Assembly: GCF_003991155.1 (NCBI RefSeq)
Contig: NZ_CP031293.1
Direction: 5' to 3' (one strand)
DNA length: 64,000 nucleotides
Origin: Escherichia coli
GTDB taxonomy: Bacteria > Pseudomonadota > Gammaproteobacteria > Enterobacterales > Enterobacteriaceae
Under the pieces are notes generated by a model that did not search any database, was not told where the DNA came from, and worked only from the letters and a program-made list of their open reading frames with translations. Below are positions 5,960 to 32,153 of the stretch, in pieces; the stretch's first letter is position 1; each line of letters begins with the position of its first letter. The position numbers and the translations under genes were made by a program.

Positions 5960-6202
5960 TCACCGGTTCTGGTGCAGAAGCTGCAGTTGGCGCAGGGTAT
6001 GGATATCCTCCCTCGCCTGTTCAATACAGGACAACAGTGCTGCCGAATCCGTTTTATCCTCATTGTTGTCAAAGATAATTCCGGATTCGCAGTCGATATT
6101 GTCCTGCAGCCACGCAATCAGAATATCCAGTGCGGTTTCCGTGGTTAATGATTTCATGTTGCTCCTGGTTACCAGTTGAAAGTGGGTAAACCCGGCAGGC
6201 AT
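5960..6202 (-). CDS. Small YeeW-like protein
   Basis: 80-aa ORF (probable start at internal Met, ~6157) downstream of the cbtA-like toxin; resembles YeeW family. Confidence 0.4.
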   Translation of the reverse strand: MPAGFTHFQLVTRSNMKSLTTETALDILIAWLQDNIDCESGIIFDNNEDKTDSAALLSCIEQAREDIHTLRQLQLLHQNR

Positions 6203-6657
6203 TCAGCGCTGGCATCCAGATGAATGAGACTGACGCCATAACGTCGGGTAAGTGTGATAACCAGACGACGGAACGTTTTTGACAGCCCCAGGCGTTTAAG
6301 CCGCAGAACCGGATATGACCACGCATCGGTACGTAACAGATATCCGCTACCTGTGAAATGAATCCATTCTGATTCACCGAAGTCACTGGTCTGGTGTGAC
6401 AGCGAGTACAGCCAGGCGTTGTCCGTTTCCGTGATATGTGCGGTACTGCAGCGTATACCGGTCAGGGCAGCAAATGGTGGCATGCAGTCTGTTGAGGCCC
6501 GGTCAGATGCATCAACAACACGAAGGGAGTGGCCATTATCACAGACCACGTTAATCAGTTCAGCGAGATTAACACCATCGACGTCAACGACAATGCGTCC
6601 CATGTTCAGTGCCTGCACGTTAATGCTGTCGGCTTCCAGCGTCAGGGCCAGTTTCAT
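6169..6657 (-). CDS. Hypothetical protein, possibly DUF5983 family
   Basis: 162-aa ORF whose start overlaps the toxin stop (ATGA coupling). Confidence 0.5.
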
Positions 6658-7031
6658 TGTTTCGCCTCCGGATGTTTCCCCTGGGTAATGTTATTTACCG
6701 TTCTGTAGTTATCGCGGGTCATCAGGCCGGTTGCCCTGCGAGCCCGGAGAATATCAATACTGTTTATTAACTGAGAGCGGGTACAGGCGCTGAATCCCGG
6801 CTGGTCGGTACGTATCAGTGCGTATTTTTCAACGAGAAAGTTCACCGCATCACACAGTGAAATGCCAGCTTCAATATGCTGCTCAATCACACGTTCATCG
6901 GCGAACGGTGTGTCATTCAGTGTGAGGCCATAGTGCTGGTCCAGCAACCGGGACAGCAGTGTCTGCCAGATGGTGACGGGAGACGGGCAGCGAGATACCT
7001 CCCGTACATGTGTGTCGGATAATGTTTTCAT
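6654..7031 (-). CDS. Type IV toxin, CbtA/YeeV/YkfI family
   Basis: 125 aa; near-identical in long stretches to remembered YeeV (…[50 protein letters not shown]…). Confidence 0.85.
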
Positions 7032-7077
7032 CTTAAGTTCTCTGTAACTGGTAGTGCTAAAGGTGAGAGCTTCGGGG

Positions 7078-7452
7078 TTATGAGGTGGTTGCGGGTGCTG
7101 GTGTCGGATAAACAGTCAGATAAACGTAACCACAGGAGCCGAGGGTGTCGGCTTCGCAGGTCAGCCCTTTTGCATACAGCGTGACGGTATGCTGATGTCG
7201 GGGATTCAGTTCACCGCTGGTGAGCATGAGTTCCAGTTGTTTCATCAGCAGCGGAAAGGCCTGGTCCAGATGGTATGCATCTGCGTCGCTGAAGCGGCCT
7301 CTGATACCCGCGCGGTCGGCAAGGTAATGCAGGTGGTTACCCTCCTGCACCAGACGGGCGCCAAAACAGGGCCTCACTGTGCAGGGAAGCCCCCACCAGG
7401 GGCGGTCGTGATTGTCGTCGGGATGAGTTATCCCGGAGAGTTTGTCTGACAC
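7078..7452 (-). CDS. Type IV antitoxin, CbeA/YeeU/YfjZ family
   Basis: 124 aa; [43 protein letters not shown] matches YeeU. Confidence 0.85.
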
Positions 7453-7614
7453 GATAAAATCCTCTCTGAAAAGTGGTTAAGAATGGTTTAACGATGACAG
7501 GTCAGCCGGCGCGCTGACCGGTTTCGGTGAAGATGTATGCATTGATGAGAATGGCCTCATCCACAGCGGCGTCTGAGGTCATCTGGTCGTACTCGTTTCC
7601 CGGGTGACGGAACA

Positions 7615-7836
7615 TCAGTTCAGGGTGACACTCATCAGCCGGACATACGGGCCAAAACTGTCCTTACGGCGTTCTGCAAACACAGCCAGCACACCGGGAA
7701 TATCCTGCACTTCACGACCGGTATACGCTTCAGTGCCACCGTGCCAGCGGTACTTACCTGTGCAGAACGGAAAAAGACGGGATGCAGGATGCTGTTGGTG
7801 AATACGCATGGCTTCACCACGGGTGATGATTCTCAT
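7615..7836 (-). CDS. YeeT/YkfH-like protein (DUF987)
   Basis: 73-aa ORF in the conserved position between the RadC-like gene and the antitoxin. Confidence 0.55.
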   Translation of the reverse strand: MRIITRGEAMRIHQQHPASRLFPFCTGKYRWHGGTEAYTGREVQDIPGVLAVFAERRKDSFGPYVRLMSVTLN

Positions 7837-11106: not shown

Positions 11107-11787
11107 TCACAGGTTAAAGGTGTTGATAAGTTTATGGATGAAAGAGAAATGTGGCAGGGCGGAGATAAAACGCTCTTCAGCGACCAGACTGTGGATGTGG
11201 CCTCTCCGTTCAAACCGTTCTGATGTCAGGCTGACTGATTTGATATCTGCCAGAGGAAAGACCTGCAGTTTTCCCTTCTGTAACGCGATCAGATACCAGC
11301 TACCGCTGTAATAAATGAGCCGGCAGGGCTCCAGTGACGGATACCATCGCTCAGTCATCAGAGAGATGTGGATACACTGTCTTATTGCCAGGATGAGTTG
11401 CGAGAAACACTCGGGGAACGTTGCAGTGATATTCGGCGCCGGTAGCCAGATAAGGCAGGGAGAGGGCTCCTGGTTGTCGGTAAGACAGGTTATCAGTCGT
11501 CCGTTCCGGAGCGGAAGTATCCGTGCGATCCCGGTATTCTGTATAAAAGAAAGCATTTCAGGGATCGCACCTGGGCTGCTCTGTCGTCTGAGGCTGTACC
11601 TGCCATTTCTGTACTCTAAATCCAGGTGAACCAGACGCTGATGAAAATCGCGCTGTAAAGTACGTTCTGTAACGCCAAATTCATCTGACAGTGTTTTTAG
11701 TGACAGAGATTCTCCGGCCATCAGTCGGCTGATAATGAGTGATAAGCGAACCGCCAGGCGATCATGCCGGGAACGATTATCAGACAT
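11107..11787 (-). CDS. WYL-domain transcriptional regulator (YfjR-like, DeoR-type HTH)
   Basis: 226 aa; N-terminal HTH (LKTLSDEFGVTERTLQRDF); position next to the YfjP-like GTPase. Confidence 0.65.
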   Translation of the reverse strand: MSDNRSRHDRLAVRLSLIISRLMAGESLSLKTLSDEFGVTERTLQRDFHQRLVHLDLEYRNGRYSLRRQSSPGAIPEMLSFIQNTGIARILPLRNGRLITCLTDNQEPSPCLIWLPAPNITATFPECFSQLILAIRQCIHISLMTERWYPSLEPCRLIYYSGSWYLIALQKGKLQVFPLADIKSVSLTSERFERRGHIHSLVAEERFISALPHFSFIHKLINTFNL

Positions 11788-11989
11788 AGATGTGCACTCC
11801 GTAAGAAAACATCTTTTATTTCATGATGTTATTATGCCTCATGGTGTTGAAAGGATGTGTCGTATCTGAATAATCAGGAATAAAATGCAGCAGAAAAAAT
11901 ATTCCTTTAATTATCTGATTTTTAATGATGATTTCATAAAAAGAAGAATACTCATTAATCCAGCGACACATCCTGTCGGCGTGAGTGTG

Positions 11990-12874
11990 TCAGAACAGAC
12001 GATCCCACAGTGTTTCCAGCAGGCGGATAATGCGGTCCCGGGCTTTACGCAGAAGCTGTAACATCCAGACCGGAAAAGTGAACCGGGCAACGGCGTCGTC
12101 AAAACTTTTCCCGATGGCGTCACCAAAAGTCTGTTGTGCGTGTTTCTGGGCCTGTTCAGAGCGGTTTTCCCCCCGGATATGTGAATAAACCGCACTGGTT
12201 GCCTGCGGTGGCAGGGCGTGGATCATCAGCGACACAAACGCCGGAAGATTCCAGCCGACAGGCGCAGCAACGGGGAGTACCGGAAATGATGACGGGAACA
12301 GGGTTGCCACCCTGGCTGTAACAGTTGCCAGTGAGAGTTCCTGGTGACGGGATGGGCATTTTTCTGTGGCATTCCATTCTTCAGCAGGAAACACGCGATC
12401 GGCATGGCTGAGAACAAACAGAAAACGCGAGGGATCTGCACCTTCATTCAGTAAAAACTGATGCATGGCAATATCGGCAGCATACGCACGTTCATCAGCC
12501 CGCAGGATCCAGATAATCAGATCCAGTTCCGGCAGTAACTGACGGTAAAGCTCCCGGTATTCCTGATCATGCTGCGGTGTCTCACCAATGCCGGGCAGAT
12601 CGACCAGCGTCATTCTGCGTTCACCAATCTGCAGGGTGAGGCGATGAGCCTGGCGGGTGCAGCCGTTCAGGGGATGCGTGGCGCAGATACGGGACTGAAA
12701 AATGGCATTACACAGACTGCTTTTGCCGGAGCCGGATTTACCCATAATGCCAATCACGGGCTCGTAATGAATAACACCGTGGAGATGTTCAAGGATTTTC
12801 TGGCGAATTTCTTCAGGAAGAAACGTCAGATATGATTTCACTTGCGCGGAGAGGGAAGAATTGCTGAATGGCAT
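11990..12874 (-). CDS. YfjP/YkfA-like GTPase
   Basis: 294 aa; P-loop GIMGKSGSGKSS and DLPG motif. Confidence 0.8.
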   Translation of the reverse strand: MPFSNSSLSAQVKSYLTFLPEEIRQKILEHLHGVIHYEPVIGIMGKSGSGKSSLCNAIFQSRICATHPLNGCTRQAHRLTLQIGERRMTLVDLPGIGETPQHDQEYRELYRQLLPELDLIIWILRADERAYAADIAMHQFLLNEGADPSRFLFVLSHADRVFPAEEWNATEKCPSRHQELSLATVTARVATLFPSSFPVLPVAAPVGWNLPAFVSLMIHALPPQATSAVYSHIRGENRSEQAQKHAQQTFGDAIGKSFDDAVARFTFPVWMLQLLRKARDRIIRLLETLWDRLF

Positions 12875-12974
12875 ACCGGTATCCTGTTGATTTCACTGAA
12901 CCGGATCACACTAATCCGGTTTATCATTCAGGTAATATGGGTGTGAAAATTTTTCCATTGACGGGAAGAAGAGT

Positions 12975-14198
12975 ATGGCTAAAAACAAAGGTATCTGTCG
13001 GAATAAAAAATGCAGTAATCCTGTTTCAGAATTTGATGAGGCAAATGCCTTAAGGTTATGCGATGATCATTATAAGCTATGGAAGCGAAATAAAGAGAAT
13101 CGTCGGGTCAGGAATATTTGTCGTATAATTAGTAGATATGACAAAAGTCTGGACTGGGAGATATTTTATAGAGTAAGAGATGCTGCAAAAAATAAAACGG
13201 GAAAGAGAATTATTGAGGACGCAAAAATATTACATCAATGGCGTGCTTCAAAGCAAGTAAGAAAAAGTTTTCACAAGGGTGTGCTTCGGTCACGGGAATG
13301 GCTTAATACACAGGAGTTACTGAGCAGAAAACATATATCTGTTACAGGTGAACTATTTAAATTTTACATAAAAGATATTATCAGATTATATTGCTATAAG
13401 TTTCTCTACAGCAGAGAATATCTTAATGAAAACGCATACAAAAAACGATATCAGAGAGATATTCACCCCAGAAAAGTTAATGTTCCGATACTGCAACTTG
13501 AAGTTGCATGGATAAATAATAATTGCCGCTCAAGTGATTCAAGCACTGATATTATTATCCTTCCGAGGATGATAAGAAGAATGGTTGTATTTAATTATAC
13601 GAAGATAAATAAACAATTAGAGAAAGTGTTGGGGGGGATAGCACGAAAACAAACCTCAGAAAGGAATAAAGGCGGTCTCTATACCAGAATAAAAAAAGAA
13701 AGTGACTTTCTTTCTATGGATAGATTTATGGTGGAAATAGAAAATATCATAAGACCTGAAAGGTTTCCTACATCAATTTATCCAGTCTTTTCACATTCAT
13801 TTATTGAACGAGAGCTTCCGCTACTGAATCTTGCCCGATCACAGTATAAAAGAGCAATAAGTAAAAGAGTGGCGAATTCAATTTTTTATACTTTGCAAAA
13901 AACTAACGTGGCATTATGGCTATATCTTGAAATGTTTGCTCTGGTGGCATTCATTAAACTGTATACAGGAAAAGGTTTTGAATTCATAAAGAACATGTGT
14001 GTATTTATCGATTATGAGAAAGGGATAATAAAATCCACACATGAAGAACTGCTGGGTGAAATTAAGCGTAACATTCAAGTGAATTTGAAGGTGAATCCTG
14101 ATAATTTTCCAGAGTTAATAGACATATACAATTCATGCTTTAGTGAAAATATATTGTCATATGATATTCAGGATGGTAATTTTAAATGGCGCTCATGA
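12975..14198 (+). CDS. Orphan hypothetical protein, 407 aa, AT-rich, lysine/arginine-rich with N-terminal Cys/His cluster
   Basis: Long uninterrupted ORF in strongly AT-rich DNA, divergent from the GTPase gene; no family recognised. Confidence 0.6.
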   Translation: MAKNKGICRNKKCSNPVSEFDEANALRLCDDHYKLWKRNKENRRVRNICRIISRYDKSLDWEIFYRVRDAAKNKTGKRIIEDAKILHQWRASKQVRKSFHKGVLRSREWLNTQELLSRKHISVTGELFKFYIKDIIRLYCYKFLYSREYLNENAYKKRYQRDIHPRKVNVPILQLEVAWINNNCRSSDSSTDIIILPRMIRRMVVFNYTKINKQLEKVLGGIARKQTSERNKGGLYTRIKKESDFLSMDRFMVEIENIIRPERFPTSIYPVFSHSFIERELPLLNLARSQYKRAISKRVANSIFYTLQKTNVALWLYLEMFALVAFIKLYTGKGFEFIKNMCVFIDYEKGIIKSTHEELLGEIKRNIQVNLKVNPDNFPELIDIYNSCFSENILSYDIQDGNFKWRS

Positions 14199-15434
14199 TG
14201 TAAAAATATTAATTTCACATTACATATTAATTATTCACAAAAAACATATAATTAATTTCAATGAGTTACATATAAAAATGTTGATGATTAGCCAGCTTAG
14301 TATGGTTATGCAATGTGATGCTTAACGCTTACAGATAATAACACATTCATATGAGCTATATATCATAATATTCAATAATCATGATATGCTAATCTGATTA
14401 TGGATAAAAATTACTGAATGACGCCATATTATGATTGGCAGTGTTTCCTGTATACGATGACTTATCTCTCCCGCATCATATGGGGGCACGTTTCTTAGGA
14501 AAAGTGACGGGGTTACAGAAGCCAATTACGATAGTTTGTTGTAGAGTTATCACGAGTTTTTGTTGTTCTGAAGACGGAATCAAAAAAATAATTCCAGAGT
14601 AAACCTGTCTGTTTTTTGACCAGTAAAGATCCATGCTGGCCGTGAAAAACTGAAATCAACACTCAGTCTGCATGGATGTCTGAAGATATTGAGAATGTCG
14701 GGAATGGTACTATATACGTATTATACAGACATATCTTCACTAAGTGTTATACACGCATTTTCATAAACAATTCTACAAGTGTTTTCATTAAGCATTGCTG
14801 TACACATTGTTTGATCTGATACACATCCAGTTTAGTAAATCTTTACGTTAGCTAAAATCAGTTTAAAGCTGCTACAAAACAATTTTTCTTGTTTAAGTAA
14901 TCAGGATGATATTCTATTTTTCTGAAGTTACGTTTAACCTTTTCTTAGTTTTTGTGTTTTTAGTCGTTAACCTGAGACAAGTGTCTTTATGTAAAAACGC
15001 AAATCCGGCTGAGATAACCTGGCGTGATTTACTGTGTGCTTACGATGATTTTGTTAAATGGTTTTATGGATGATTTTGTAACGATGAGATTGATGAGATG
15101 ATTAACTGGCCCTGGTGTTTTTTCTCAGCGCAAGACTCTTTTCAGGAAAAGCGTGATGATTGGTTCTGGTGTTTTGATTCAGATGAGGTTTACGTTATCG
15201 ATGGTTAACCGTTTTTATGGAGCGTAGTTAAAAGTAACGTTTTCAGTATAAGAAAATCGATTCTGATGTTGGTGGTTTTTGTTCTTGGGGCGGGGGTGTC
15301 TGTAAACAGGTTTTAATCGCGCTGTTCGGCTCTGTGATTGAGTTGTGTGGTTAAGCTGTAGGTGTGGTGTGATCTTACACAGCAATAGTGGACACGCGGC
15401 TAAGTGAGTAAACTCTCAGTCAGAGGTGACTCAC

Positions 15435-15734
15435 ATGACAAAAACAGTATCAACCAGTAAAAAACCCCGTAAACAGCATTCGCCTGAATTTCGCAGTGAA
15501 GCCCTGAAGCTTGCTGAACGCATCGGTGTTACTGCCGCAGCCCGTGAACTCAGCCTGTATGAATCACAGCTCTACAACTGGCGCAGTAAACAGCAAAATC
15601 AGCAGACGTCTTCTGAACGTGAACTGGAGATGTCTACCGAGATTGCACGTCTCAAACGCCAGCTGGCAGAACGGGATGAAGAGCTGGCTATCCTCCAAAA
15701 GGCCGCGACATACTTCGCGAAGCGCCTGAAATGA
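15435..15734 (+). CDS. insE: IS3 transposase OrfA
   Basis: [29 protein letters not shown]... matches IS3 OrfA; ORF-track start 15426 is an upstream GTG. Confidence 0.85.
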
Positions 15735-16597
15735 AGTATGTCTTTATTGAAAAACATCAGGCTGAGTTCAGCATCAAAGCAATGTGCCGCGTGCTCCGGG
15801 TGGCCCGCAGCGGCTGGTATACGTGGTGTCAGCGGCGGACAAGGATAAGCACGCGTCAGCAGTTCCGCCAACACTGCGACAGCGTTGTCCTCGCGGCTTT
15901 TACCCGGTCAAAACAGCGTTACGGTGCCCCACGCCTGACGGATGAACTGCGTGCTCAGGGTTACCCCTTTAACGTAAAAACCGTGGCGGCAAGCCTGCGC
16001 CGTCAGGGACTGAGGGCAAAGGCCTCCCGGAAGTTCAGCCCGGTCAGCTACCGCGCACACGGCCTGCCTGTGTCAGAAAATCTGTTGGAGCAGGATTTTT
16101 ACGCCAGTGGCCCGAACCAGAAGTGGGCAGGAGACATCACGTACTTACGTACAGATGAAGGCTGGCTGTATCTGGCAGTGGTCATTGACCTGTGGTCACG
16201 TGCCGTTATTGGCTGGTCAATGTCGCCACGCATGACGGCGCAACTGGCCTGCGATGCCCTGCAGATGGCGCTGTGGCGGCGTAAGAGGCCCCGGAACGTT
16301 ATCGTTCACACGGACCGTGGAGGCCAGTACTGTTCAGCAGATTATCAGGCGCAACTGAAGCGGCATAATCTGCGTGGAAGTATGAGCGCAAAAGGTTGCT
16401 GCTACGATAATGCCTGCGTGGAAAGCTTCTTTCATTCGCTGAAAGTGGAATGTATCCATGGAGAACACTTTATCAGCCGGGAAATAATGCGGGTAACGGT
16501 GTTTAATTATATCGAATGTGATTACAATCGGTGGCGGCGGCACAGTTGGTGTGGCGGCCTCAGTCCGGAACAATTTGAAAACAAGAACCTCGCTTAG
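15731..16597 (+). CDS. insF: IS3 transposase OrfB (DDE integrase domain; made as OrfAB fusion by -1 frameshift)
   Basis: 288 aa with DDE motif region (…HTDRGGQY…CYDNA…). Confidence 0.85.
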
Positions 16598-16911
16598 GCC
16601 TGTGTCCATATTACGTGGGTAGGATCAGTGTTGCTGTTGATTTACAGCGCCAGAAAGCGTTCTGATTGCGTTTCTGACGTTTTGTTTGCGCGTTCTGTTG
16701 ATCCGTTTCCCTTCAGGCTTTGTAGTTTTTAAAAAACATTTATGCCGTTGTTGTGTGTTTTACTCTGCGTGTAGGTTTATTTTTTCTTCGTGGGGGATTC
16801 ATTCTGTTTTAATCAGGAGCCATTGGCGTTGCTCAATGGCGGGATGCCGTAAAGTTTTACCGCAGTGATTAATGATGTGAAGTCAATCCAAATCAACGGA
16901 GATCTCTCATC

Positions 16912-17643
16912 ATGAATCAACCAATACACAATGCTTACTGGTTATCCCGTTTTGAAAGTATTCTCAACAGTGCCCTGGCGCAACACCGTGCCGTCTCGTT
17001 AATCCGGGTGGATTTACGTTTCCCTGAGTATATGCCTGTCACCATCATGGATCCCGATCCGGATTCAGCGGTGATTTCCCGTTTTTTCGCATCCCTGAAA
17101 GCCAAAATTCAGGCTTACCAGCGGAAAAAAAGATGGGCCAATCAGCGTGTGCATGCAACCAGCCTGCGTTATTTCTGGTGCCGGGAGTTCGGCAAGATGT
17201 ATGGCAGGAAACATTATCACGTGATATTACTGCTCAACAAAGATACCTGGTGCTCGCTCGGGGATTTCAGCGAACCGTCTTCGCTGGCGACGATGATCCA
17301 GGAGGCATGGTGCAGCGCCCTGCATCTTGAGCCCTGGCAAGGCGATGGCCTGGTCCATTTTTCCAGGTGGACGCCTTCCCGTAAACCGACATCGTCTGAT
17401 GCTCGCCCTTCTTCCGATGACACGCCTTTGTCGGGTGGATGTTCTGATACCAGGAAGGCTTCAGACAAAAAGCCAGGTGAAGCCGCTGTGCTCTGGATCA
17501 AGCGTGGTGATGTGGAAGCGCTGCAGAAAGCCCGGAACAGAGCCAGTTATCTCGTGAAATATGAGACGAAGCAGCATGACGGTTCCGGGCAACGTAATTA
17601 TGGTTGCAGTCGTGGGCCGGGGCGTCTACTGGATGGCAGGTGA
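16912..17643 (+). CDS. YagK/YfjJ-family protein (inovirus Gp2-like domain)
   Basis: 243 aa; …SLIRVDLRFPEY… and …HYHVILLL… motifs typical of the family. Confidence 0.55.
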   Translation: MNQPIHNAYWLSRFESILNSALAQHRAVSLIRVDLRFPEYMPVTIMDPDPDSAVISRFFASLKAKIQAYQRKKRWANQRVHATSLRYFWCREFGKMYGRKHYHVILLLNKDTWCSLGDFSEPSSLATMIQEAWCSALHLEPWQGDGLVHFSRWTPSRKPTSSDARPSSDDTPLSGGCSDTRKASDKKPGEAAVLWIKRGDVEALQKARNRASYLVKYETKQHDGSGQRNYGCSRGPGRLLDGR

Positions 17644-18616: not shown

Positions 18617-19151
18617 TTATTATATTTACAAATCGTAAGCCAGAATTGACTCCAGACCATTATGTGCCTTATTCACCATGAGTGAAATGCGGGATGAGCC
18701 TGCAAGTTAAGAGGATATCGGAAACCAGCAACCAGGGCAGTGAGAGCGCTGTCGGGGTCATTGATATCTCCGAAGGGAAGCCCTGGTATAAGGTGTTTGC
18801 ATAAAATTATTAAACAGGCTCATTTTTAGCGATCCTCATGAAATTCATCGTAACATCCTGAATATCTTATGGTGTTTCCTGTCATCTCCGGTATTTATTC
18901 CGTTCATGCAAATAACCTGATGAAACAGGGCAACGCCATAAAACCGGATAAGGACAACATGGATTAACGATAAAAATTGTGATCCTGTTTTCATTTTTCA
19001 CTTTTTGATTCTGGACTGGTATTTACATTTCTAAAAACAGGCATAAAGTGAACACATGTTTGATTTTGAATATATGTTCAACTCTATCTGCGTGGTCGAA
19101 TAGAAATACAGATTTATTATTTTTGTGTTTTTAAATGTCAGGAGATGTGCC

Positions 19152-20087
19152 ATGTGTGATAAGGAATACATCATCACAATTGGCTCTGCCAATATAGATA
19201 TAGCCGGATATTCGTATGCCTCCTTAAATTATGCTGATTCTAACCCGGGGAAGATTAAATTCACGCCCGGAGGTGTGGGGCGTAATATTGCACATAATCT
19301 TGCTCTGCTGGGTAAAAAATCATGGCTGATGTCAGCTGTGGGAGATGATTTCTACGGGCAATCATTATTAGCACAAACGACTCAGTCCGGCGTTAATGTT
19401 GATAAATGTCTGATTGTTAATGGAGAAAATACCTCAAGTTATTTATCACTTCTCGATAAAACCGGTGAAATGTTGGTGGCAATAAATGACATGACGATTA
19501 GTGAACATATTTCAGCTGAGTTTTTATCACAGCATATTGATTTTATTCAGGGAGCGAAGGTTATTGTTGCAGACTGTAATATCAGTGAGTCAACACTTGT
19601 CTGGCTACTGAATAATGCAGGTAAGGTTCCGGTATTTGTTGACCCGGTATCTGCATGGAAGTGTGTCAAAATTCGTGAACATTTAGCACAAATTCATACT
19701 CTCAAGCCCAACCGGCTTGAAGCAGAAACACTCAGTGGTATTTCGCTTTCAGATCGGAATGATGCTGAAAAAGTGGCGGTATGGTTCCATACACATGGTC
19801 TGAATCGCCTTGTGCTCAGCATGGGGGGGGATGGAGTTTATTACAGCGAACTGTACGGAGCCAGCGGCTGGTCGCCGCCAGTAAAAACACAGGTGGTGAA
19901 CGTTACGGGGGCAGGGGATGCCATGATGGCAGGGCTGGCTTCCTGCTGGGTTGATAATATGCCATTTATTGATTCCATTCGATTTGCACAGGGGTGTTCA
20001 TCAATGGCGCTGGCCAGTGAGTATACCAATAATCCTGAATTATCTGTTGCTAACGTTAAAAGCTTAGTGGAGAAACAGAATGTCTGA
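19152..20087 (+). CDS. PfkB-family kinase, pseudouridine kinase (PsuK/YeiC)-like
   Basis: ORF 19125..20087 trimmed to Met10 after an AGGAGA ribosome-binding site; PfkB motifs GGVGRNIA and GAGDA. Confidence 0.75.
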   Translation: MCDKEYIITIGSANIDIAGYSYASLNYADSNPGKIKFTPGGVGRNIAHNLALLGKKSWLMSAVGDDFYGQSLLAQTTQSGVNVDKCLIVNGENTSSYLSLLDKTGEMLVAINDMTISEHISAEFLSQHIDFIQGAKVIVADCNISESTLVWLLNNAGKVPVFVDPVSAWKCVKIREHLAQIHTLKPNRLEAETLSGISLSDRNDAEKVAVWFHTHGLNRLVLSMGGDGVYYSELYGASGWSPPVKTQVVNVTGAGDAMMAGLASCWVDNMPFIDSIRFAQGCSSMALASEYTNNPELSVANVKSLVEKQNV

Positions 20088-21015
20088 AATAACCATTTCT
20101 TCTGAATTACTGCAAATTTCACCGGAAGTACAGGATGCCATTAACAGTAAAAAACCTGTTGTTGCTCTCGAGTCAACAATTATCTCACATGGTATGCCTT
20201 TTCCTCAGAATGCTCAGACGGCTATTGAAGTCGAAGAAACTATACGTAAACACGGAGCAGTACCAGCCACCATTGCCGTTATTGGCGGTGTAATGAAAGT
20301 CGGGTTAAGTAAAGATGAGATTGAATTACTGGGTCGCGAAGGACATAACGTTACCAAAGTCAGTCGCCGGGATTTACCTTTCGTTATTGCTGAAGGAAAA
20401 CATGGTGCAACAACGGTAGCTTCAACCATGATTATTGCTGCTCTTGCCGGAATTAAAGTTTTTGCCACAGGAGGAATTGGCGGCGTTCATCGCGGTGCAG
20501 AACACACTTTTGATATTTCAGCCGACCTACAGGAACTGGCACATACTAATGTCACCGTGGTTTGTGCAGGCGCGAAATCCATTCTCGATTTAGGGTTAAC
20601 CACGGAATATTTAGAAACATTTGGTGTACCTTTAATTGGCTATCAGACAAGATCATTGCCGGCATTTTTTTGCCGCACCAGTCCGTTTGAGGTCAGTATA
20701 CGTCTGGACAGTGCAAAAGAGATTGCCCGCGCGATGGCAGTGAAATGGCAAACCGGCCTGAACGGTGGTCTGGTTGTTGCCAATCCGATTCCGGAAGCTT
20801 ACGCCATGGCGGAAGAGAAAATTAATGCAGCAATTGACCAGGCCGTAAAAGAAGCGGAAGTGCAGGGCATTACCGGTAAAGAAAGCACACCGTTCCTGCT
20901 GGCACGGGTGGCAGAATTAACCGGTGGTGACAGTCTGAAATCAAATATTCAGCTGGTATTCAACAACGCAGTTCTGGCCTGTGAGATAGCAAAAGAATAT
21001 CAACAAATTGTCTGA
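20080..21015 (+). CDS. Pseudouridine-5'-phosphate glycosidase (PsuG/YeiN, IndA family)-like
   Basis: 311 aa, collinear with PsuG; start overlaps the upstream kinase stop. Confidence 0.8.
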   Translation: MSEITISSELLQISPEVQDAINSKKPVVALESTIISHGMPFPQNAQTAIEVEETIRKHGAVPATIAVIGGVMKVGLSKDEIELLGREGHNVTKVSRRDLPFVIAEGKHGATTVASTMIIAALAGIKVFATGGIGGVHRGAEHTFDISADLQELAHTNVTVVCAGAKSILDLGLTTEYLETFGVPLIGYQTRSLPAFFCRTSPFEVSIRLDSAKEIARAMAVKWQTGLNGGLVVANPIPEAYAMAEEKINAAIDQAVKEAEVQGITGKESTPFLLARVAELTGGDSLKSNIQLVFNNAVLACEIAKEYQQIV

Positions 21016-21098
21016 TATAAATGAACGGGCAGTGTGAGGTCGCCCGAAATTACCTGAACCAGATTCCGTGTCTGGTTCAGGTATAAGGGGAGAGCATT

Positions 21099-22349
21099 AT
21101 GGACATCATGAGAAGTATAGTGGGAATGGCAGTATTGCTGATAATTGCATTTCTACTATCAGTGAATAAAAAACGTATCAGTTTACGTACCACAGGAGCT
21201 GCACTGGTTCTTCAAATCGCGATTGGTGGGATCATGCTCTATTTCCCCCCGGGGAAATGGCTGGTTGAACAGGCTGCACTGGGCGTACATAAAATTATGT
21301 CTTACAGTGATGCGGGCAGTGCCTTTATTTTTGGCTCTCTGGTAGGGGACAAAATGGACGTACTGTTCGATGGGGCGGGTTTTATCTTCGCCTTCCGTGT
21401 ACTTCCTGCCATCATTTTTGTTACAGCGCTTATCAGTCTGCTGTACTACATCAGAGTGATGGGGGGGCTTATCCGTATTCTGGGGGGGATTTTTCAGAAA
21501 GCTCTGAACATAAGTAAAGTTGAGTCATTTGTGGCAGTAACGACAATTTTCCTGGGGCAAAACGAGATCCCGGCAATTGTAAAACCGTTTATTAATCGTC
21601 TGAATCGTAATGAATTATTTACTGTCATCTGCAGTGGGATGGCTTCGATTGCCGGTTCAATGATGATCGGCTATGCCGGGATGGGGGTTCCGATTGACTA
21701 TTTGCTGGCGGCGTCGTTGATGGCGATCCCGGGGGGGATCCTTTTTGCCCGTATTCTGAGTCCGGCCACAGAAGAATCAAAAGTCACTTTTGAAAATCTT
21801 TCTTTCACTGATACTCCTCCCAAAAGTGTTATTGAAGCAGTGGCCAGCGGGGCGATGACCGGGTTGAAAATCGCTGTCGGAGTTGCAACGGTAGTGATGA
21901 CCTTTGTTGCTATTATTGCTCTGATTAACGGTATAATCGGTGGTATCGGAGGCTGGTTTGGTTATGGTAATATTACCCTTGAGGGCATTTTCGGCTGGAT
22001 TTTGGCTCCCCTTGCGTGGATCATGGGCGTTGACTGGGCGGATGCTTCACTGGCAGGAAGTCTGATTGGTCAGAAGCTGGCAATTAACGAATTTGTTGCT
22101 TATCTCAATCTTTCACCCTATTTACAGCCAGGCAGTACGCTTGATGTGAAAACCACCGCAATTATTTCTTTTGCACTGTGTGGTTTTGCCAACTTTGGCT
22201 CCATTGGTGTGGTGGTGGGTGCCTTTTCAGCCATATCACCTCAGCGTGCACCTGAAATTGCACAACTGGGCATGCGTGCACTGGCGGCGGCCACCCTGTC
22301 AAACCTGATGAGTGCGACTATCGCTGGTTTTTTCATTGGGCTGGCATAA
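21099..22349 (+). CDS. NupC-family nucleoside transporter (PsuT/YeiM-like)
   Basis: 416-aa polytopic membrane protein with NupC-like sequence. Confidence 0.8.
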   Translation: MDIMRSIVGMAVLLIIAFLLSVNKKRISLRTTGAALVLQIAIGGIMLYFPPGKWLVEQAALGVHKIMSYSDAGSAFIFGSLVGDKMDVLFDGAGFIFAFRVLPAIIFVTALISLLYYIRVMGGLIRILGGIFQKALNISKVESFVAVTTIFLGQNEIPAIVKPFINRLNRNELFTVICSGMASIAGSMMIGYAGMGVPIDYLLAASLMAIPGGILFARILSPATEESKVTFENLSFTDTPPKSVIEAVASGAMTGLKIAVGVATVVMTFVAIIALINGIIGGIGGWFGYGNITLEGIFGWILAPLAWIMGVDWADASLAGSLIGQKLAINEFVAYLNLSPYLQPGSTLDVKTTAIISFALCGFANFGSIGVVVGAFSAISPQRAPEIAQLGMRALAAATLSNLMSATIAGFFIGLA

Positions 22350-23927: not shown

Positions 23928-24762
23928 CTTCATTCAATCATAACTACTGTAATTCATACGATACTCAGATAAGTTATTTTACTACGTTGTTGCTAATATC
24001 TACCTGTTATCAGTCTTCACTGAAACAGCAATTGATTTTAGTCATTATCCATAATGAACTGTATTGACTTAACGATGATTGTTGTTGACCTGAAGTGTTT
24101 TAACTATTCTGGTAAATATCAATACTTCTGTCATCACTGATTAACTGGATGTTTACTCTTTGATAAGGTATCCATGATTTCGTCATGTTTAACAGCGCAG
24201 GATAAACAATGAAATTAACAGAGTGAATTCCTGATTATATTTGTTCGTTTCTGATTATCTTGTATGTTAAACAAAATGAAAATTATCCATCCATGGTATA
24301 TTTTATTCTGGTACCGTGTACCCGTTAACGCTCATGTTTTGAAGTGAGTTGTTTTTAACAGATTAAATGAGAGTGTATGATTTTATCAGGTTACAGATAT
24401 GTGTTGGCCTTGTACACGTTTTTGCAGACTCACTGAGAGCAAGTTTGTAGTTTATGATGTGATTGGTCGCAATATGTTTCTTAATCTCCAGGTAGTGGGG
24501 TTTTAGCTCGTATTTTACAGTATTTCGTGATGTTTTATTGAGTCTGTATTTTCTTTACTCCTCGTTTATCTCATCTCTTTAGCTAATACCATCAGATAAT
24601 CCATTTCTTTCTGCATAATGCTGCGTATCGTTAATAACCCGTCGTATCCATTCTGCTACAGCATGCCTGATAAATACCATCTGTAAGTTATTACCGTTAT
24701 GAGCGAAAGCATTAATTCGTTCACAGAGCTTAAAACATCATTAACTTTCAGGAGTCATCAAC

Positions 24763-25329
24763 ATGCCTAAATCTTACACACCAAACTGGTTTTTTACCGC
24801 TTTACTTGACAATCACATCAATCAAATGCTGGCACGTTATTCCTGCCTGCGAGCTTTACGGATGGATTTCTTCTACAGGAAAGATACGCCTGATTTCTTA
24901 CAACCTGATCATCGCTGGCTTGAATTGCAGTTGCGTATGATGCTGGAACAGGTTGAACAATTTGAAAATATCGTTGGCTTCTTCTGGGTGATTGAATGGA
25001 CGGCTGATCATGGTTTTCATGCGCATGCGGTTTTCTGGATCGATCGTCAGAGGGTTAAAAAAATATATCCCTTTGCGGAGCGGATTACGGAATGCTGGCG
25101 GTCTATTACGCATAACAGCGGTTCGGTACATCGCTGTACATATCAGCCGCATTATACATACAACATCAACATTCCTGTGCGCCACAACGATCCTGAAAGC
25201 ATCAATAATATTCGCGGTGCCCTGCATTATCTGGCGAAAGAAGAGCAAAAAGACGGGTTGTGTGCCTACGGCTGCAATGAAGTTCCTGAACGTCCTGCTG
25301 CAGGGCGTCCTCGTAAGCCTCACTTCTGA
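24763..25329 (+). CDS. YagK/YfjJ-family protein (paralog)
   Basis: 188 aa; …LRALRMDFFYRKD… motif; upstream region similar to that of the 16912 gene. Confidence 0.5.
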   Translation: MPKSYTPNWFFTALLDNHINQMLARYSCLRALRMDFFYRKDTPDFLQPDHRWLELQLRMMLEQVEQFENIVGFFWVIEWTADHGFHAHAVFWIDRQRVKKIYPFAERITECWRSITHNSGSVHRCTYQPHYTYNINIPVRHNDPESINNIRGALHYLAKEEQKDGLCAYGCNEVPERPAAGRPRKPHF

Positions 25330-25575: not shown

Positions 25576-25959
25576 ATGAATGCTATTCCTTATTTCGACT
25601 ATAGCCTGGCACCCTTCTGGCCATCTTATCAGAACAAAGTCATCGGCGTCCTTGAGCGTGCGCTACGTGAGCAGTCCTGCGCCCGGGTACGGCGGATCCT
25701 GCTTCGCCTGCCGGGGGAACATGACAACATCTTCAGTGACAGAAAAACCTGGTTCGGTATGGCCTTTATCGAAACTGTCAGTGCGCTGATGAATGCAACC
25801 CCCGGACGCGACCTCTGCTGGCTCCTGACCCGTCATCCTGAAAAGCCGGAATACCACGTGGTGCTGTGTGTCAGACAGGAGTATTTCGACGGCCCTGAAC
25901 TGGACCGGCTGATTCTGGATGCCTGGAGCAACGTACTGGGCTTCGCGTCACCGGGTTAA
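25576..25959 (+). CDS. YagK/YfjJ-family-like protein, short (paralog or fragment)
   Basis: ORF 25444..25959 trimmed to Met45; …ARVRRILLRLPGEHD… and …YHVVLCV… motifs. Confidence 0.4.
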   Translation: MNAIPYFDYSLAPFWPSYQNKVIGVLERALREQSCARVRRILLRLPGEHDNIFSDRKTWFGMAFIETVSALMNATPGRDLCWLLTRHPEKPEYHVVLCVRQEYFDGPELDRLILDAWSNVLGFASPG

Positions 25960-26219
25960 GCAAAGCCGTATCAGAAGCAGATCACCCGGGATGTAGTACT
26001 GGACAGTCGTTCGCCGGACTGCGAAGACCTGTTTAAAGACCTGATCTGGGCATTCAGCGATTTTGCCCGCGATCGTCGTGGTGTGTGCGATCCGGAAGCT
26101 CGTTGCCTTGCCGGTAATCCCGGGTATCCCGGATCTGCAGGACCGTTCTGAAAACACGGCTCAGCATCTTCTTCCGCATTTGCACAACCTTCATAAATCT
26201 CACAAAGGACATTCTGACC

Positions 26220-26453
26220 ATGTTGACCACAACAAACCACGACAGCGTGTTGCTGCGTGCCGACGATCCCCTGATCGACATGAACTACATCACCAGTTTC
26301 ACTGGCATGACAGATAAATGGTTTTACAAGCTGATCAGTGAAGGCCATTTCCCTAAACCCATCAAACTGGGGCGCAGCAGCCGCTGGTACAAAAGTGAGG
26401 TGGAGCAGTGGATGCAGCAACGAATCGAGGAATCCCGGGGGGCAGCAGCATGA
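26220..26453 (+). CDS. AlpA-family phage/island transcriptional regulator
   Basis: …MNYITSFTGMTDKWFYKLISEGHFPKPIKLGRSSRWYKSEVEQWM… is a typical AlpA HTH. Confidence 0.7.
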   Translation: MLTTTNHDSVLLRADDPLIDMNYITSFTGMTDKWFYKLISEGHFPKPIKLGRSSRWYKSEVEQWMQQRIEESRGAAA

Positions 26454-29398: not shown

Positions 29399-30646
29399 TT
29401 AGCCAAATTTAGGTAACACGTTAAAGACGTTACCGAACCAGCATAAAATTACGGTTATACCAAAGAGAATGACAATCGCCGGAATAAGATTGCCGCCCCA
29501 GACTGTGAACATCTGATTGGGAAATTTCTTGCGGGCTTTGATTGCCAGCACTGCGGGAATAATGACCGCCCAGATGGTGGCGCACAGTCCGGCACCGCCG
29601 ATCCCGTAAATAAAGCCGTTCGGGAAGATCAGATACAACAACGCGGGTGGCAGGAAGGTTAACAGCACGGTTTTGAAACGCCCGGCGTGGGAGTTATCAA
29701 TCTTAAACAGATCCGCCAGATAATCGAACAATCCCAGCGTGACACCAAAGAACGAACTGGCAACAGCTAAGTTAGAGAACACCAGCAGGCAAAACTCGAT
29801 AATCCCATGCTGTTTGGTGCCGAGGAATGATTTCACCAGCGAATCAACGTTGCCGCCTGAGGAGATTATCGCCTTAAAGCTTTCTCGCGGGATATTCCCC
29901 ATCGTGCAATAGAGCCAGAAGAGATAAATCACCAGCGCCAGCAGCGAACCGAAGACCACGCTTTTGATTAGCTTATCTTTGCGTTTTCCATAGCAAATAA
30001 TCAGGCTGGGAATATTGCCGTGGAAACCAAATGACGCCAGACACACCGGCAAAGCCATAAAGATATACGGGAAGTAAGACTTACCCGCAGTGGAGCTGGC
30101 TGCATCGCGCAGAATGGAATAATCGGCCTGGAAGAAGAGAGAGCCAAACACGATCACAAAGGAGATAATCTTCAGCCCGAGGAACAATGAGGTAATACGA
30201 CTGGCGGCTAACGAACTTATCCACAATACGCTGGCAACGAAAATGGCTGTGCAGACTCCGACAATACGTGGATTAGCGTGATAACTCAGATTCATTGATA
30301 TCGTTTCGCTAATGATTGCGCCGTTAGCAGAAATATAGGCATAAGTGAGGATATAGAGAACGAAGGCAACGGTAATACCGCTGATAATGTTCCAGGTGTT
30401 ACCGATTAAATCTTTGGCGATGGTGTTAAAACTGGATCCGACGGGATAGTTTAAATTTGCTTCTAATAACAATAACCCGGAATGAAGCATTGAAAACCAG
30501 GCAATGATAAGGATAAAGGCTCCCCAGAAAAACCAGGCACCGGCAAGATCAACAGGTAAAGCAAACATCCCACCGCCAATTACCGTACCGGCTATAACCA
30601 TAACACCCCAAAATGCAGAGTGTTTTTTTTCAGCTTGTTCAGTCAT
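29399..30646 (-). CDS. tnaB: Low-affinity tryptophan permease TnaB
   Basis: 415 aa; matches E. coli TnaB. Confidence 0.9.
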   Translation of the reverse strand: MTEQAEKKHSAFWGVMVIAGTVIGGGMFALPVDLAGAWFFWGAFILIIAWFSMLHSGLLLLEANLNYPVGSSFNTIAKDLIGNTWNIISGITVAFVLYILTYAYISANGAIISETISMNLSYHANPRIVGVCTAIFVASVLWISSLAASRITSLFLGLKIISFVIVFGSLFFQADYSILRDAASSTAGKSYFPYIFMALPVCLASFGFHGNIPSLIICYGKRKDKLIKSVVFGSLLALVIYLFWLYCTMGNIPRESFKAIISSGGNVDSLVKSFLGTKQHGIIEFCLLVFSNLAVASSFFGVTLGLFDYLADLFKIDNSHAGRFKTVLLTFLPPALLYLIFPNGFIYGIGGAGLCATIWAVIIPAVLAIKARKKFPNQMFTVWGGNLIPAIVILFGITVILCWFGNVFNVLPKFG

Positions 30647-30737: not shown

Positions 30738-32153
30738 TTAAACTTCTTTCAGTTTTGCGGTGAAGTGACGCAATACTTTCGGTTCGTAGGTAAAGGTTAA
30801 CCCTTTAATATTCGCCGCGTTCTCTTTCACATGTTTAAAGGCTTCAATAATGAAGTCCATATGTGTTTGAGTATATGTTGCGCGCGGAATGGTTAAACGC
30901 AGCAGTTCAGCCGGGCATGGCAGTTGTTTACCGGTTTTCGGATCGCGGCCTAACAGGAAAGAGCCAATTTCTACCGCACGGATACCGGCGACTTTATACA
31001 GCTCGCAGGCCAGCGCCTGTGCCGGGAACTGATCTGCCGGGATATGCGGCAGTAGTTTACCGGCATCAACGAATGCCGCGTGACCGCCCGCCTGCTGGCA
31101 GACAACGCCAATCTCTTCCAGGCCATCGACCAGATACTGCACCTGCGCAATACGATAAGCCAGCCAGTCCAGATTCATGCCGTCATACAGACCTACCGCC
31201 AGACGCTCCATAGCGCCGCCTTCCAGGCCGCCATATGTCGGGAAGCCTTCCTGCACCACGCAAAGGGTTCTGCATTCGGTGTACACATCAAAGAAGCTGT
31301 CGTCTTTCATGCACAGCAGGCCGCCCATCGGCACCATCGCATCTTTCTTGGCGGACATCGCCAGCATATCGGCATATTTGTAGGTTTCGCGGGTGATTTG
31401 CTCGATGGTCCAGTCTTTGTATTCTGCTTCACGCTGCTTGATGAAATAGGCGTTTTCGGCAAAGCGTGCGGAGTCCATTACCACCGGAATATCGTATTTC
31501 TTCGCGATGCTGTACATCGCTTTTAAGTTTGCCAGTGAAACCGGCTGACCACCTGCGGAGTTACTGGTGATGGTTGCAACGATATACGGCACGTTATTCG
31601 GGCCAACTTCTTCAATACCGCGTTCTAATCCCTCAAGGTCAAAGTTGCCTTTAAAGTCGTAACGCACGCCCGTATCGAAGGCTTCTTTGATATAGACGTT
31701 ACGCACGGTACAGCCGTTAATCTGGCTATGGCCCTGCGTGGTATCAAAGAAATAGTTAGAGAACGCCACCATTTTGCTGCGATCCAGGCCTTTTTCCTGC
31801 TCGCGTTTTTTAATCAGTACCGGAATATAGATTTGCTCTGCACCACGGCCCTGGTGAGTCGGAATAGTGTATTGATAACCAAAGATATTTTTCACTGACT
31901 CGGCTAACGCGTAGTAGCTGCGGCTGCCGCTGTAAGCTTCGTCGCCGCGCATCATCGCGGCCTGCATACTCTGCGTCACCGCCCCGGTACCGCTGTCGGT
32001 CAGTAAATCGATAAACACATCTTCACTATCCAGCAGGAACGGGTTCATGCCGGCTTTAATAATTGCTTCTTCACGATAAGCGCGAGTGGTACGTTTTACT
32101 GGCTCAATAACACGAATGCGGAACGGTTCAGGGAGATGTTTAAAGTTTTCCAT
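30738..32153 (-). CDS. tnaA: Tryptophanase TnaA
   Basis: ORF 30738..32168 trimmed to [11 protein letters not shown] (471 aa); matches E. coli TnaA. Confidence 0.9.

Follow-up and report, generated by a model that had tools for sequence, protein, structure and literature searches.

The SaPI Stl master repressors and the lambdoid imm regions are immunity or specificity regions of satellites and phages. Many unrelated systems, also found in other defence islands, occupy the hotspots of P2-like phages and P4-like satellites (Rousset et al., 2022; PMC9122126). In E. coli K-12, the CP4-57 element has the gene order intA-alpA-yfjI-yfjJ-abpBA-yfjM-rnlAB-yfjP, with rnlA and rnlB immediately upstream of yfjP. 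The Pseudomonas tmRNA-site islands, which encode IntY, AlpA, an inovirus Gp2-like protein and RadC, are moved by jumbo-phage transduction and contain many orphan ORFs and defence systems, with no recognisable transfer machinery (PMC12595487).

The 64,000-nucleotide stretch of Escherichia coli DNA analysed here (the window; contig NZ_CP031293.1) carries a CP4-57-like island in which a sharply bounded, exchangeable cassette lies between a GTPase operon and a Gp2/AlpA module. What is new is this cassette, at 12950-14584, whose content is the gene for a 407-aa orphan protein that, with its homologues, we call family A. Shared with CP4-57 are genes for a YfjP GTPase, DUF932, WYL/HTH, antirestriction, RadC, DUF987, YeeU/CbtA-type toxin-antitoxin, YfjJ/Gp2-like and AlpA proteins, and K-12 also carries defence cargo upstream of its GTPase gene. 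Order and orientation differ, however, since alpA, yfjI, yfjJ, cargo and yfjP are all co-directional in CP4-57; K-12 lacks a family-A gene, and its YfjP is only 35% identical to the GTPase in the window (E=3e-62, including the GKSGSGKSS P-loop motif). An initial annotation had placed the gene at the position where CP4-57-type elements carry variable cargo. The variable cargo was borne out by four E. coli variants with identical junctions and different contents, while the K-12 analogy proved loose.

With the Pseudomonas tmRNA-site islands the locus shares a core of tyrosine integrase, AlpA, Gp2-like protein, RadC and an HTH protein, but those islands belong to another genus, use another attachment site, and family A was not reported there (PMC12595487). 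No family-A homologue outside Enterobacterales was found among 1.84 billion representative proteins or 100,044 species representatives. The likeness to the P2 and P4 hotspots (PMC9122126) lies in a discrete variable locus between conserved flanking element genes, in the AT-rich contents, and in the P4-type integrase and AlpA of the integrative element. Unlike in those hotspots, only two orphan families were seen in the slot here, both apparently slot-exclusive and without a significant PADLOC match. The locus is laid out as follows (window coordinates):

11990..12874, minus strand: YfjP-family GTPase gene, first in a long leftward backbone operon
12875..12949: backbone part of the divergent intergenic region, common to all four cassette types
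12897..12923: inverted repeat built on a CCGG-N11-CCGG core, occupying the -35 position relative to the rightward box
12931..12940: box GGTAATATGG, unchanged across 10 lineages
12933-12938: TAATAT, putative -10-like hexamer for the ORF; its complement, TATATT, is the putative -10-like hexamer for the GTPase operon
12950..14584: variable cassette, consisting of the ORF, a 25 bp 5' leader and a 386 bp allele-specific AT-rich 3' flank
12975..14198, plus strand: gene for the 407-aa orphan protein (family A), with an ATG start; RefSeq WP_001107219.1, 'hypothetical protein'
12996..13070, plus strand: codons of the CCCH zinc finger (C8, C13, C29, H32); model pLDDT ~89 for residues 11-40
14238..14249, plus strand: CAAAAAACATAT 12-mer, ~40 nt past the stop codon
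14585..15366: backbone spacer, starting with AAAATAATTCCAGAGTAAA, present in all cassette types at 73-87% identity
15370..16627, plus strand: IS3 within the backbone spacer, ends approximate
16630..16911: remaining backbone spacer, upstream of the Gp2-like gene
16912..17643, plus strand: Inovirus Gp2 / YagK-YfjJ-like (Rep-like) gene, flanking the slot on its right as part of the backbone
26220..26453, plus strand: AlpA-like gene, 12 kb from the ORF, past inserted cargo

The family-A ORF is a functional gene under purifying selection. At its base composition (A 0.377, C 0.135, G 0.201, T 0.288), a run of 407 stop-free codons would arise by chance with a probability of ~3e-16, and the remaining five frames of the region contain 17-51 stops each. 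Intact copies are present in 975 of 5,426 complete E. coli genomes (18%), and in 967 genomes the gene is full length at 90-100% nucleotide identity; UTI89 has a 99% identical copy (Q1R2M8). Within the allele dN/dS is 0.26-0.27; the GTPase gene has 0.13-0.22 and the Gp2-like gene 0.23-0.40. The opposite view, that the ORF is decaying or non-functional and retained by hitch-hiking only, could draw on L021-type islands, which do without it, so that it is dispensable for the island. That view is effectively refuted by a 407-codon open frame in 34% GC DNA, by the intact copies in 967 genomes with their dN/dS of 0.27, by motifs conserved in full-length homologues as low as 22% identity, and by a confident AlphaFold2 model. 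The same counts and dN/dS dispose of a degraded fragment, the possibility that the initial annotation had set against its own proposal.

The GC content of the ORF is 33.6%, against 53.4% for the adjoining GTPase gene, and the 1-kb bins from 13001 to 15000 are at 0.32-0.34, against 0.47-0.56 for most bins around them. The protein has a pI of 9.82, with 77 K+R vs 45 D+E. The first description of the ORF as AT-rich and very basic thus holds, as does its divergent placement beside the YfjP-like GTPase gene, across a spacer of 100 bp. Family-A genes have 32-37% GC in all lineages; AT-richness is therefore a trait of the family, and composition is no sign of recent acquisition.

A reading of the gene as fixed backbone was rejected. 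The synteny behind it came from loci found by searching with the gene itself, and an unbiased search with the GTPase gene recovered other cassette contents, which overturned it. In other E. coli islands the cassette is replaced as a unit, and four variants have the same junctions, at 12949/12950 on the left (12959 for L020) and 14584/14585 on the right, with flanks that match the window at ~93% identity on the left and 73-93% on the right. The four contents are all AT-rich orphans: the 407-aa gene, a 376-aa gene, a 319-aa gene together with an unrelated 266-aa family-B gene, and family B alone, as a 338-aa protein. The 376-aa occupant is a remote homologue of the 407-aa protein (16% identity, hhalign 98.7%), and the 319-aa occupant is, judging from a weak match, probably a finger-less family-A homologue. 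In family B, the other slot family, the C-terminal segment is weakly ribbon-helix-helix-like. Family A is the commonest occupant, and at least two, probably three, of the four cassette types hold family-A homologues, which is not the pattern of free-for-all cargo. One island variant, L021, has no family-A gene at all, so the function is dispensable for the island.

On the left, the operon encodes the GTPase, a WYL/HTH regulator at 11107-11787, DUF905, DUF932, antirestriction, RadC, DUF987, YeeU/CbtA and DUF4942 proteins. This GTPase variant, named 'GTPase family protein' or 'YfjP family GTPase' in RefSeq and with homologues that carry MMR_HSR1, occurs in 1,866 of 5,426 complete E. coli genomes (~1/3), often in several copies. 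The family-A gene adjoins the GTPase gene in 8 of 11 lineages, whether the two are divergent or co-directional; two of the other three lineages have apparently had the GTPase deleted and kept the WYL regulator, and in the third the contig is cut by an IS. In other genera alpA lies directly downstream of the family-A gene. An alpA remnant in the spacer of the window was considered and rejected, as tblastn gave a match only at 26220-26450. Every family-A context recovered is the same slot in one island type.

These neighbours raise the possibility of a backbone accessory that works with the GTPase or the Rep-like/AlpA module, whether in origin or oriT recognition, as a loader, or as a GTPase partner in island replication, transfer or maintenance. 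We consider this improbable. The GTPase gene is adjacent in either layout, the ORF lies between the Gp2/Rep-like gene and an antirestriction/RadC/DUF932 operon that we take to resemble a plasmid leading region, and the allele-specific 3' flank could serve as a cis site. However, the pairwise identities of ORF and GTPase across lineages are uncorrelated (Spearman 0.01), so the two do not co-evolve as a pair and their co-divergence was discarded. One and the same GTPase (~93-94% nucleotide identity) accompanies all four cassette types, including one that lacks family A, and the orphan protein shows neither a P-loop, HUH or tyrosine-recombinase signature nor a match by fold. In the 3' flank and spacer we found no iteron array, only weak two- or three-copy repeats, and a Rep-plus-origin model was rejected for want of iterons there.

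Searches of Pfam, NCBIfam, PADLOC and PDB sequences with the 407-aa protein were all without match, and PHROGs returned one match only, non-significant, which agrees with the earlier statement that no motif could be assigned to a known enzyme or defence family. The defence HMM set used was PADLOC-DB 2.0.0, which covers systems described up to 2023. In it, no family matched the ORF at E<=1; none matched five distant relatives or the 376-aa allele significantly (only DpdJ at E=0.031, on relative P0055), and nothing matched the other cassette proteins at E<=0.01. Family A comprises ~10 full-length clusters among the 1.84 billion representative proteins, all from Enterobacterales, and occurs in 3 of the 100,044 species representatives; no member turned up in 50,697 phage records, in 72,556 plasmids or in 2.9 million viral contigs. 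An AlphaFold2 model of the protein (pLDDT 79) had no meaningful fold match, AFDB50 returning uncharacterised Enterobacterales relatives only and BFVD nothing at E<=0.001. Two of the checks proposed with the initial annotation, a defence-system search and structure prediction, thus produced no assignment. The protein has no recognised DNA-binding fold, HTH or known sensor domain, no PDB relative, and no HNH or RT signature.

Four UniProt relatives (A0AAW5Z627, A0AAW5Z6I9, A0AAU7N7V1 and A0AAX3CP38) bear automatic names as HNH endonuclease or reverse transcriptase, which we treat as mislabels. For HNH endonuclease there was no Pfam HNH match at E<=10, no invariant catalytic His/Asn/Asp set and no fold match; for reverse transcriptase there was no RVT Pfam match at E<=10, and the catalytic residues are missing. 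The C...C...C..H-Y finger pattern also flanks some HNH nucleases, and this Cys/His finger is the only likeness of family A to HNH nucleases or reverse transcriptases. Homology to K-12 YfjH or YfjI was likewise rejected (hhalign probability <1%), as was RnlA/RnlB-type or other CP4-57 toxin-antitoxin cargo (no Pfam/NCBIfam match; a single-gene cassette of 1.63 kb).

The N-terminal Cys/His cluster noticed at the outset is C8-x4-C13...C29-x2-H32, and it is invariant in 14 family members that are each 22-37% identical to the query. One relative, P0049, has the CCCH finger in duplicate. The 407-aa and 376-aa alleles have in common only this finger, a few scattered residues and a C-terminal YNSxF motif. 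The zinc ligand H32 is the only invariant His in family A, and N24 is lost in distant members. Once remote alleles are included, no conserved catalytic-type residues are left; E176, for example, is H in the 376-aa allele. A profile of the finger alone gave a single PDB match, to a ClpK/ClpC N-terminal fragment at E=3, and in a large protein collection nothing except fragments of the same 407-aa protein.

What might such a protein do? Regulator-like and anti-phage roles are about equally likely, the former being our best guess and defence its close rival. In the anti-phage case, the slot would be a defence hotspot and the gene a single-gene anti-phage or abortive-infection factor that detects a phage component or obstructs it, with no classical enzymatic effector. 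We give this only slightly less weight than the regulatory reading below. The cassette is truly variable, with fixed junctions and four different AT-rich orphan contents; known defence genes lie near the slot in several islands (L002 has type I R-M, L011 has McrBC and TIR/BrxR-like genes, and L018 has a restriction endonuclease), AbpAB and RnlAB lie upstream of yfjP in K-12 CP4-57, and extreme allele divergence between near-identical flanks would also fit an arms race. Hotspots in satellites and prophages, moreover, contain many defence genes that had gone unrecognised (PMC9122126). Known defence genes usually move among many kinds of mobile element, whereas family A is confined to one slot of one Enterobacterales island type. 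This confinement and the lack of a catalytic signature weaken the anti-phage reading. Against it also stand the PADLOC results, without a significant match for the ORF, its distant relatives or the alternative cassette proteins; the mutual homology of at least two, probably three, of the four occupants; the lack of any effector-type domain or conserved catalytic residue; and a within-allele dN/dS of 0.27, which indicates no diversifying selection.

We tentatively favour reading the 407-aa protein as a factor that serves the island in specificity or regulation by binding nucleic acid, with no enzymatic activity, while giving this less than an even chance. Contacts with DNA or RNA would come from the N-terminal CCCH finger together with the basic surface, and the large, fast-diverging helical body would set specificity; it might recognise a partner or signal, or act on sites in the allele's own 3' flank, which in other genera is the region just upstream of alpA. 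The cassette gene would be driven from a backbone promoter whose control lies with a backbone factor such as the WYL/HTH regulator and not with the cassette protein, and the cassette would act as a phage or satellite immunity or specificity region (cf. SaPI Stl) rather than as free cargo. Consistent with such a role, the finger never varies among 14 relatives, survives in the allele at 16% identity and occurs twice in P0049, the pI is 9.8, no acidic/His constellation survives across alleles (E176 to H), and there is no enzyme domain. Family A is locked to one slot and never found in phages, plasmids or viral contigs. Homologous, hyper-divergent alleles between ~93% identical flanks are typical of specificity determinants, and the cassette brings its own 3' flank, of the size of the ORF-to-alpA spacer and with a 12-mer conserved across genera. 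Family B, with its weakly ribbon-helix-helix-like end, may also bind DNA, and AT-richness in all lineages is no mark of recent acquisition.

Several observations speak against a regulatory role, however. Homology lends DNA binding no support, and a lone small finger might just as well contact RNA or protein. For a regulator the protein is big at 407 aa, and it contains neither an HTH nor a known sensor domain. Alleles differ without any matching change in the palindrome at the divergent promoter, the 3' flank has no convincing operator or iteron arrays, and L021 lacks family A. From 1,068 places in 975 genomes we estimate that ~9% of carriers apparently have at least two copies of the same allele, which argues against strict immunity-type exclusivity. 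AT-rich orphan cassettes at mobile-element hotspots have often turned out to be defence genes (PMC9122126).

The resemblance of the slot to Stl and the lambdoid imm regions lies in its fixed position at a regulatory junction, in divergent homologous occupants swapped between near-identical flanks and, within family A, in a conserved small putative nucleic-acid-binding module joined to a variable body. Unlike Stl and CI, family A has no HTH and is unrelated to them in sequence or fold, the palindrome lies outside the cassette and does not co-vary, and one island variant (L021) is without family A. A more specific and rather unlikely version is that families A and B form an exchangeable sensor/immunity module, a Stl-like switch with a new fold, which through a palindrome-controlled backbone promoter would tie AlpA and the Gp2-like Rep to signals from a phage, helper or competing island, with allele type as the specificity.

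The divergent intergenic region bears on who would control whom. The cassette starts ~12 nt past the conserved backbone -10-like box, which suggests that the cassette gene is transcribed from a backbone promoter. The CCGG-N11-CCGG repeat is identical across the four E. coli cassette types and is not allele-specific; accordingly, the 407-aa protein is not an obvious regulator of the divergent promoter. The repeat looks like a palindrome rather than an RNA hairpin. A structured RNA was rejected there (RNAalifold stem of 5 bp, covariation term 0.04), and Rfam gave nothing at E<=1 for 11500-16000.

The leftward operon also encodes an ArdB/KlcA-type antirestriction protein and RadC, and small-finger, non-enzymatic binders are common among inhibitors. 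An anti-defence or host-manipulating protein, such as a system inhibitor or counter-silencer expressed early from the island, would fit this company, and hyper-divergent alleles would fit target tracking. With no known inhibitor similar to it, and 407 aa being large for such proteins, we think this role very improbable.

CP4-57-like islands with a GTPase/DUF932/antirestriction/RadC/CbtA backbone are very common, and this gene set underlies many islands. The gene is present in 18% of complete E. coli genomes, and relatives of known function or fold went undetected. As a regulator or sensor it would open a way into how this class of islands is controlled; as a defence protein it would be a new system of unusual, non-enzymatic architecture. 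For either role, the defined junctions and four natural cassettes are a ready isogenic series.

The only other open frame in the cassette, a small Cys-rich one at 14435-14602, is probably not a gene, as by eye its frame is intact in one allele but disrupted in another. The allele-specific non-coding 3' flank measures ~390-410 bp, and in other genera 285-495 bp separate the ORF from alpA. Several genera have the 12-mer in their family-A loci, 15-48 nt past the stop codon.

The open reading frame (ORF) lies exactly where the initial annotation had placed it (12975-14198, + strand, ATG start, 407 aa), and its product is named 'hypothetical protein' in RefSeq (WP_001107219.1). Given that the local sequence is 34% GC, 407 stop-free codons would arise by chance with a probability of ~3e-16, and the other five frames contain 17-51 stops. 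The properties described in that annotation were also recovered: the ORF has 33.6% GC vs. 53.4% for the adjacent GTPase gene, and it encodes a very basic protein (pI 9.82) with an N-terminal Cys/His cluster (C8-x4-C13...C29-x2-H32). The divergent YfjP-like neighbour, the GTPase gene at 11990-12874 (- strand), is 100 bp from the ORF, and its product is 35% identical to K-12 YfjP (E=3e-62). Among 5,426 complete E. coli genomes, 975 have intact copies of the ORF (90-100% nucleotide identity), which lie at several chromosomal sites and number up to four per genome. The dN/dS between alleles is 0.26-0.27, similar to that of neighbouring genes (GTPase, 0.13-0.22; DUF932, ~0.1; Gp2-like gene, 0.23-0.40), and full-length relatives at 22-37% identity have many invariant positions in common. 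An AlphaFold2 model from a 14-sequence alignment (mean pLDDT 78.8, pTM 0.67) predicts a mainly helical fold that includes two short pairs of strands. Decay of the ORF can effectively be ruled out, and the ORF is a functional orphan gene with a conserved zinc-finger motif.

The ORF protein falls outside every known family. Sequence searches of Pfam, NCBIfam, PADLOC and the PDB returned no match, bearing out its description as an orphan, and PHROGs gave a single match at E=0.08. When 1.84 billion representative proteins were scanned exhaustively with HMMER, 25 matches were obtained (~10 full-length clusters, the rest fragments), and a profile search added one further member of family A, as we call the protein's relatives. 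These are encoded in only 3 of 100,044 species-representative genomes, and none was found in the 50,697 phage records, 72,556 plasmids and 2.9 million viral contigs searched. Foldseek against AFDB50 returned uncharacterised Enterobacterales proteins only, and a BFVD fold search gave no significant match. Some family members and structural relatives (A0AAX3CP38, A0AAW5Z627, A0AAW5Z6I9 and A0AAU7N7V1) carry UniProt names that are apparently automatic; 'Reverse transcriptase' and 'HNH endonuclease' found no support in domain searches of the members tested.

Whether the ORF is fixed backbone rather than cargo could not be judged fairly from loci found through the ORF itself, which biases the inference towards a fixed gene. 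As an unbiased query, the GTPase gene together with the adjoining intergenic region was searched against E. coli genomes, giving 2,509 places in 1,866 genomes, about twice the number of ORF carriers. The other slot contents revealed in this way overturned the fixed-backbone reading. Among the ORF-less E. coli islands inspected (L-numbers denote individual loci), three further contents were found in the same place, as expected from the variable cargo position initially proposed:

L018 and L019: 376-aa protein (463 genomes)
L020: 319-aa protein (+ strand) and 266-aa protein (- strand, gene at 7015-7818)
L021: 338-aa protein (- strand, gene at 6094-7113)

The junctions are common to the four cassette variants. 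The left flank is ~93% identical up to window position 12949 (12959 in L020), and on the right, homology restarts at 14585 with AAAATAATTCCAGAGTAAA. The varying unit is therefore 12950-14584, comprising a 25-bp leader, the ORF and a 386-bp AT-rich 3' flank. The alternative contents are likewise AT-rich (34-40% GC) and had no significant match in PADLOC, NCBIfam or Pfam. As a kind of locus, bounded variable cassettes of integrative elements are well known.

Over its full length, the 376-aa protein is remotely homologous to family A (hhalign probability 98.7%, E=5e-16, 16% identity). It retains the finger, along with the ILP..R helix and a YNSFF motif at the C-terminus, and lacks SREW/NTQ, SREYL and E176. 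The 319-aa protein has no finger, and its matches to family A are weak (hhalign E=0.003, BLASTP E=0.005); the two are independent and collinear and span recognisable family-A motifs, so that it is probably a homologue as well. The minus-strand proteins of 266 and 338 aa are homologues of one another (23% identity, E=2e-8) and form family B, which proved unrelated to family A when the two were compared. Family B has no significant Pfam, NCBIfam or PADLOC match, and its C-terminus weakly resembles a ribbon-helix-helix domain (RHH_1, E=0.09). Given the homology among occupants, the slot is not filled at random: it holds A, distant A, finger-less A with B, or B alone, and neither family was seen outside it. 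One family-A member, P0049 (L007 8587-9984), has two tandem zinc fingers, the first of which is similar to the N-terminus of alleles of the 376-aa type (L018, L014), suggesting recombination between allele classes.

The ORF's element is a member of the CP4-57-like class. Its island spans setC to tRNA-Sec, with backbone genes for the GTPase, a WYL/HTH regulator, DUF905, DUF932, antirestriction, RadC, DUF987, YeeU/CbtA and DUF4942. A core consisting of an integrase, AlpA, a Gp2-like protein and RadC is common to this class and to recently described Pseudomonas islands, which are mobilised by jumbo-phage transduction (PMC12595487). Klebsiella, Citrobacter, Atlantibacter and further enterobacterial contigs also yielded family-A relatives, every one of them within this kind of island. 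The family-A gene and the GTPase gene diverge across a 92-106-bp spacer in seven lineages, with AlpA and a YagK/YfjJ (Gp2/Rep-like) gene next after the family-A gene. One lineage has int, two small genes, the family-A gene and the GTPase gene in that order, all co-directional, and in a related contig an IS interrupts the locus directly after the family-A gene; two others keep the WYL regulator, the GTPase gene being apparently deleted. Since family-A genes have 32-37% GC beside GTPase genes of 49-59% GC in all lineages, AT-richness is a trait of the family.

The backbone part of the intergenic region contains a GGTAATATRG box (12931-12940), unchanged in all 10 of the lineages compared, which represent several genera. 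On either strand the box reads as a -10-like hexamer. Adjoining it is an inverted repeat (12897-12923) with the conserved core CCGG-N11-CCGG, for which RNAalifold gave little support as an RNA hairpin. Judged from sequence, this one palindrome could control both divergent promoters; it is identical across the four cassette types and, if an operator, would be recognised by a factor of the backbone, not by the cassette protein. The cassette begins ~12 nt past the TAATAT hexamer, about where transcription is expected to start, so a backbone promoter probably drives any + strand gene in the slot.

On the 3' side, a 12-mer, CAAAAAACAYAT, occurs 15-48 nt past the stop codon in family-A loci from several genera, at loci where the family-A proteins are only ~35% identical and the flanks otherwise unalignable. 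Two or three loose copies of YGGTYYTGGTGTTTT, a partial match to the 12-mer's reverse complement, lie in the backbone spacer that precedes the Gp2-like gene:

12-mer, window: 14238-14249
12-mer, L002: 11296-11307
12-mer, L004: 11299-11310
12-mer, L011: 11248-11259
12-mer, L012: 11281-11292
12-mer, L016 and L017: 13264-13275
Spacer with loose copies, window: 14585-15366 and 16630-16911
Spacer with loose copies, L018: 9315-10460

In the window an IS3 copy (~15370-16627) lies within this conserved spacer; in the IS3-free E. coli loci L016, L018, L019 and L021, the spacer from slot to Gp2-like gene is continuous, AT-rich and ~1.5-1.9 kb long, with no annotated gene. A small Cys-rich ORF (14435-14602, + strand, ~40-55 aa, ...VCCRVITSFCC...) whose end coincides with the right-hand junction of the cassette is probably not a gene, as its frame is kept in L016 and broken in L017.

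Family A is confined to a single exchangeable slot in a single type of island, homologous slot alleles are hyper-divergent between near-identical flanks, and no catalytic signature is present. From the slot-locked distribution, the homology among occupants, the modules of both families that may bind DNA (for family B a weak match only) and the allele-specific non-coding flank, we infer, tentatively, that the ORF protein is a non-enzymatic nucleic-acid-binding specificity or regulatory factor. The cassette would then be an immunity-like region, with the zinc finger as an anchoring module and the variable helical body as the carrier of specificity, and the 3' flank of the gene, in other genera the stretch directly upstream of alpA, is a possible target of the protein. 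The main rival, the single-gene defence factor originally proposed, we rate only slightly lower: AT-rich orphan cassettes in mobile-element hotspots have a record of this kind (PMC9122126) and defence genes occur elsewhere in such islands, but the ORF has no significant PADLOC match, no effector-type domain and a narrow distribution, and selection within the allele is purifying, not diversifying. We rate two further roles below both the regulatory and the defence readings: a protein partnering the GTPase or the Rep-like module is improbable, and an anti-defence or host-manipulating protein more improbable still. The ORF is a well-defined, common candidate, open to experimental testing.

The window holds a composite selC island (3051-50094) from setC to tRNA-Sec, including:

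19125-22349: psuK/psuG and nucleoside-transporter cargo
24763-25329 and ~25594-26112: further Rep-like genes
26220-26453: alpA-like gene
29399-30646: tnaB, and 30738-32168: tnaA, of the tnaCAB operon
48523-49704: integrase gene
50000-50094: tRNA-Sec

It additionally holds IS66 and IS110 remnants and an otnK-type catabolic cluster. Other strongly AT-rich patches of the window are 32001-33000 (GC 0.32), 45001-46000 (0.34) and 24001-25000 (0.36). In the matching RefSeq genome, the start of the window (positions 1-400) falls within a SycD/LcrH-type type III secretion chaperone gene adjoining a SipB-like gene, which may be part of an ETT2-related cluster.
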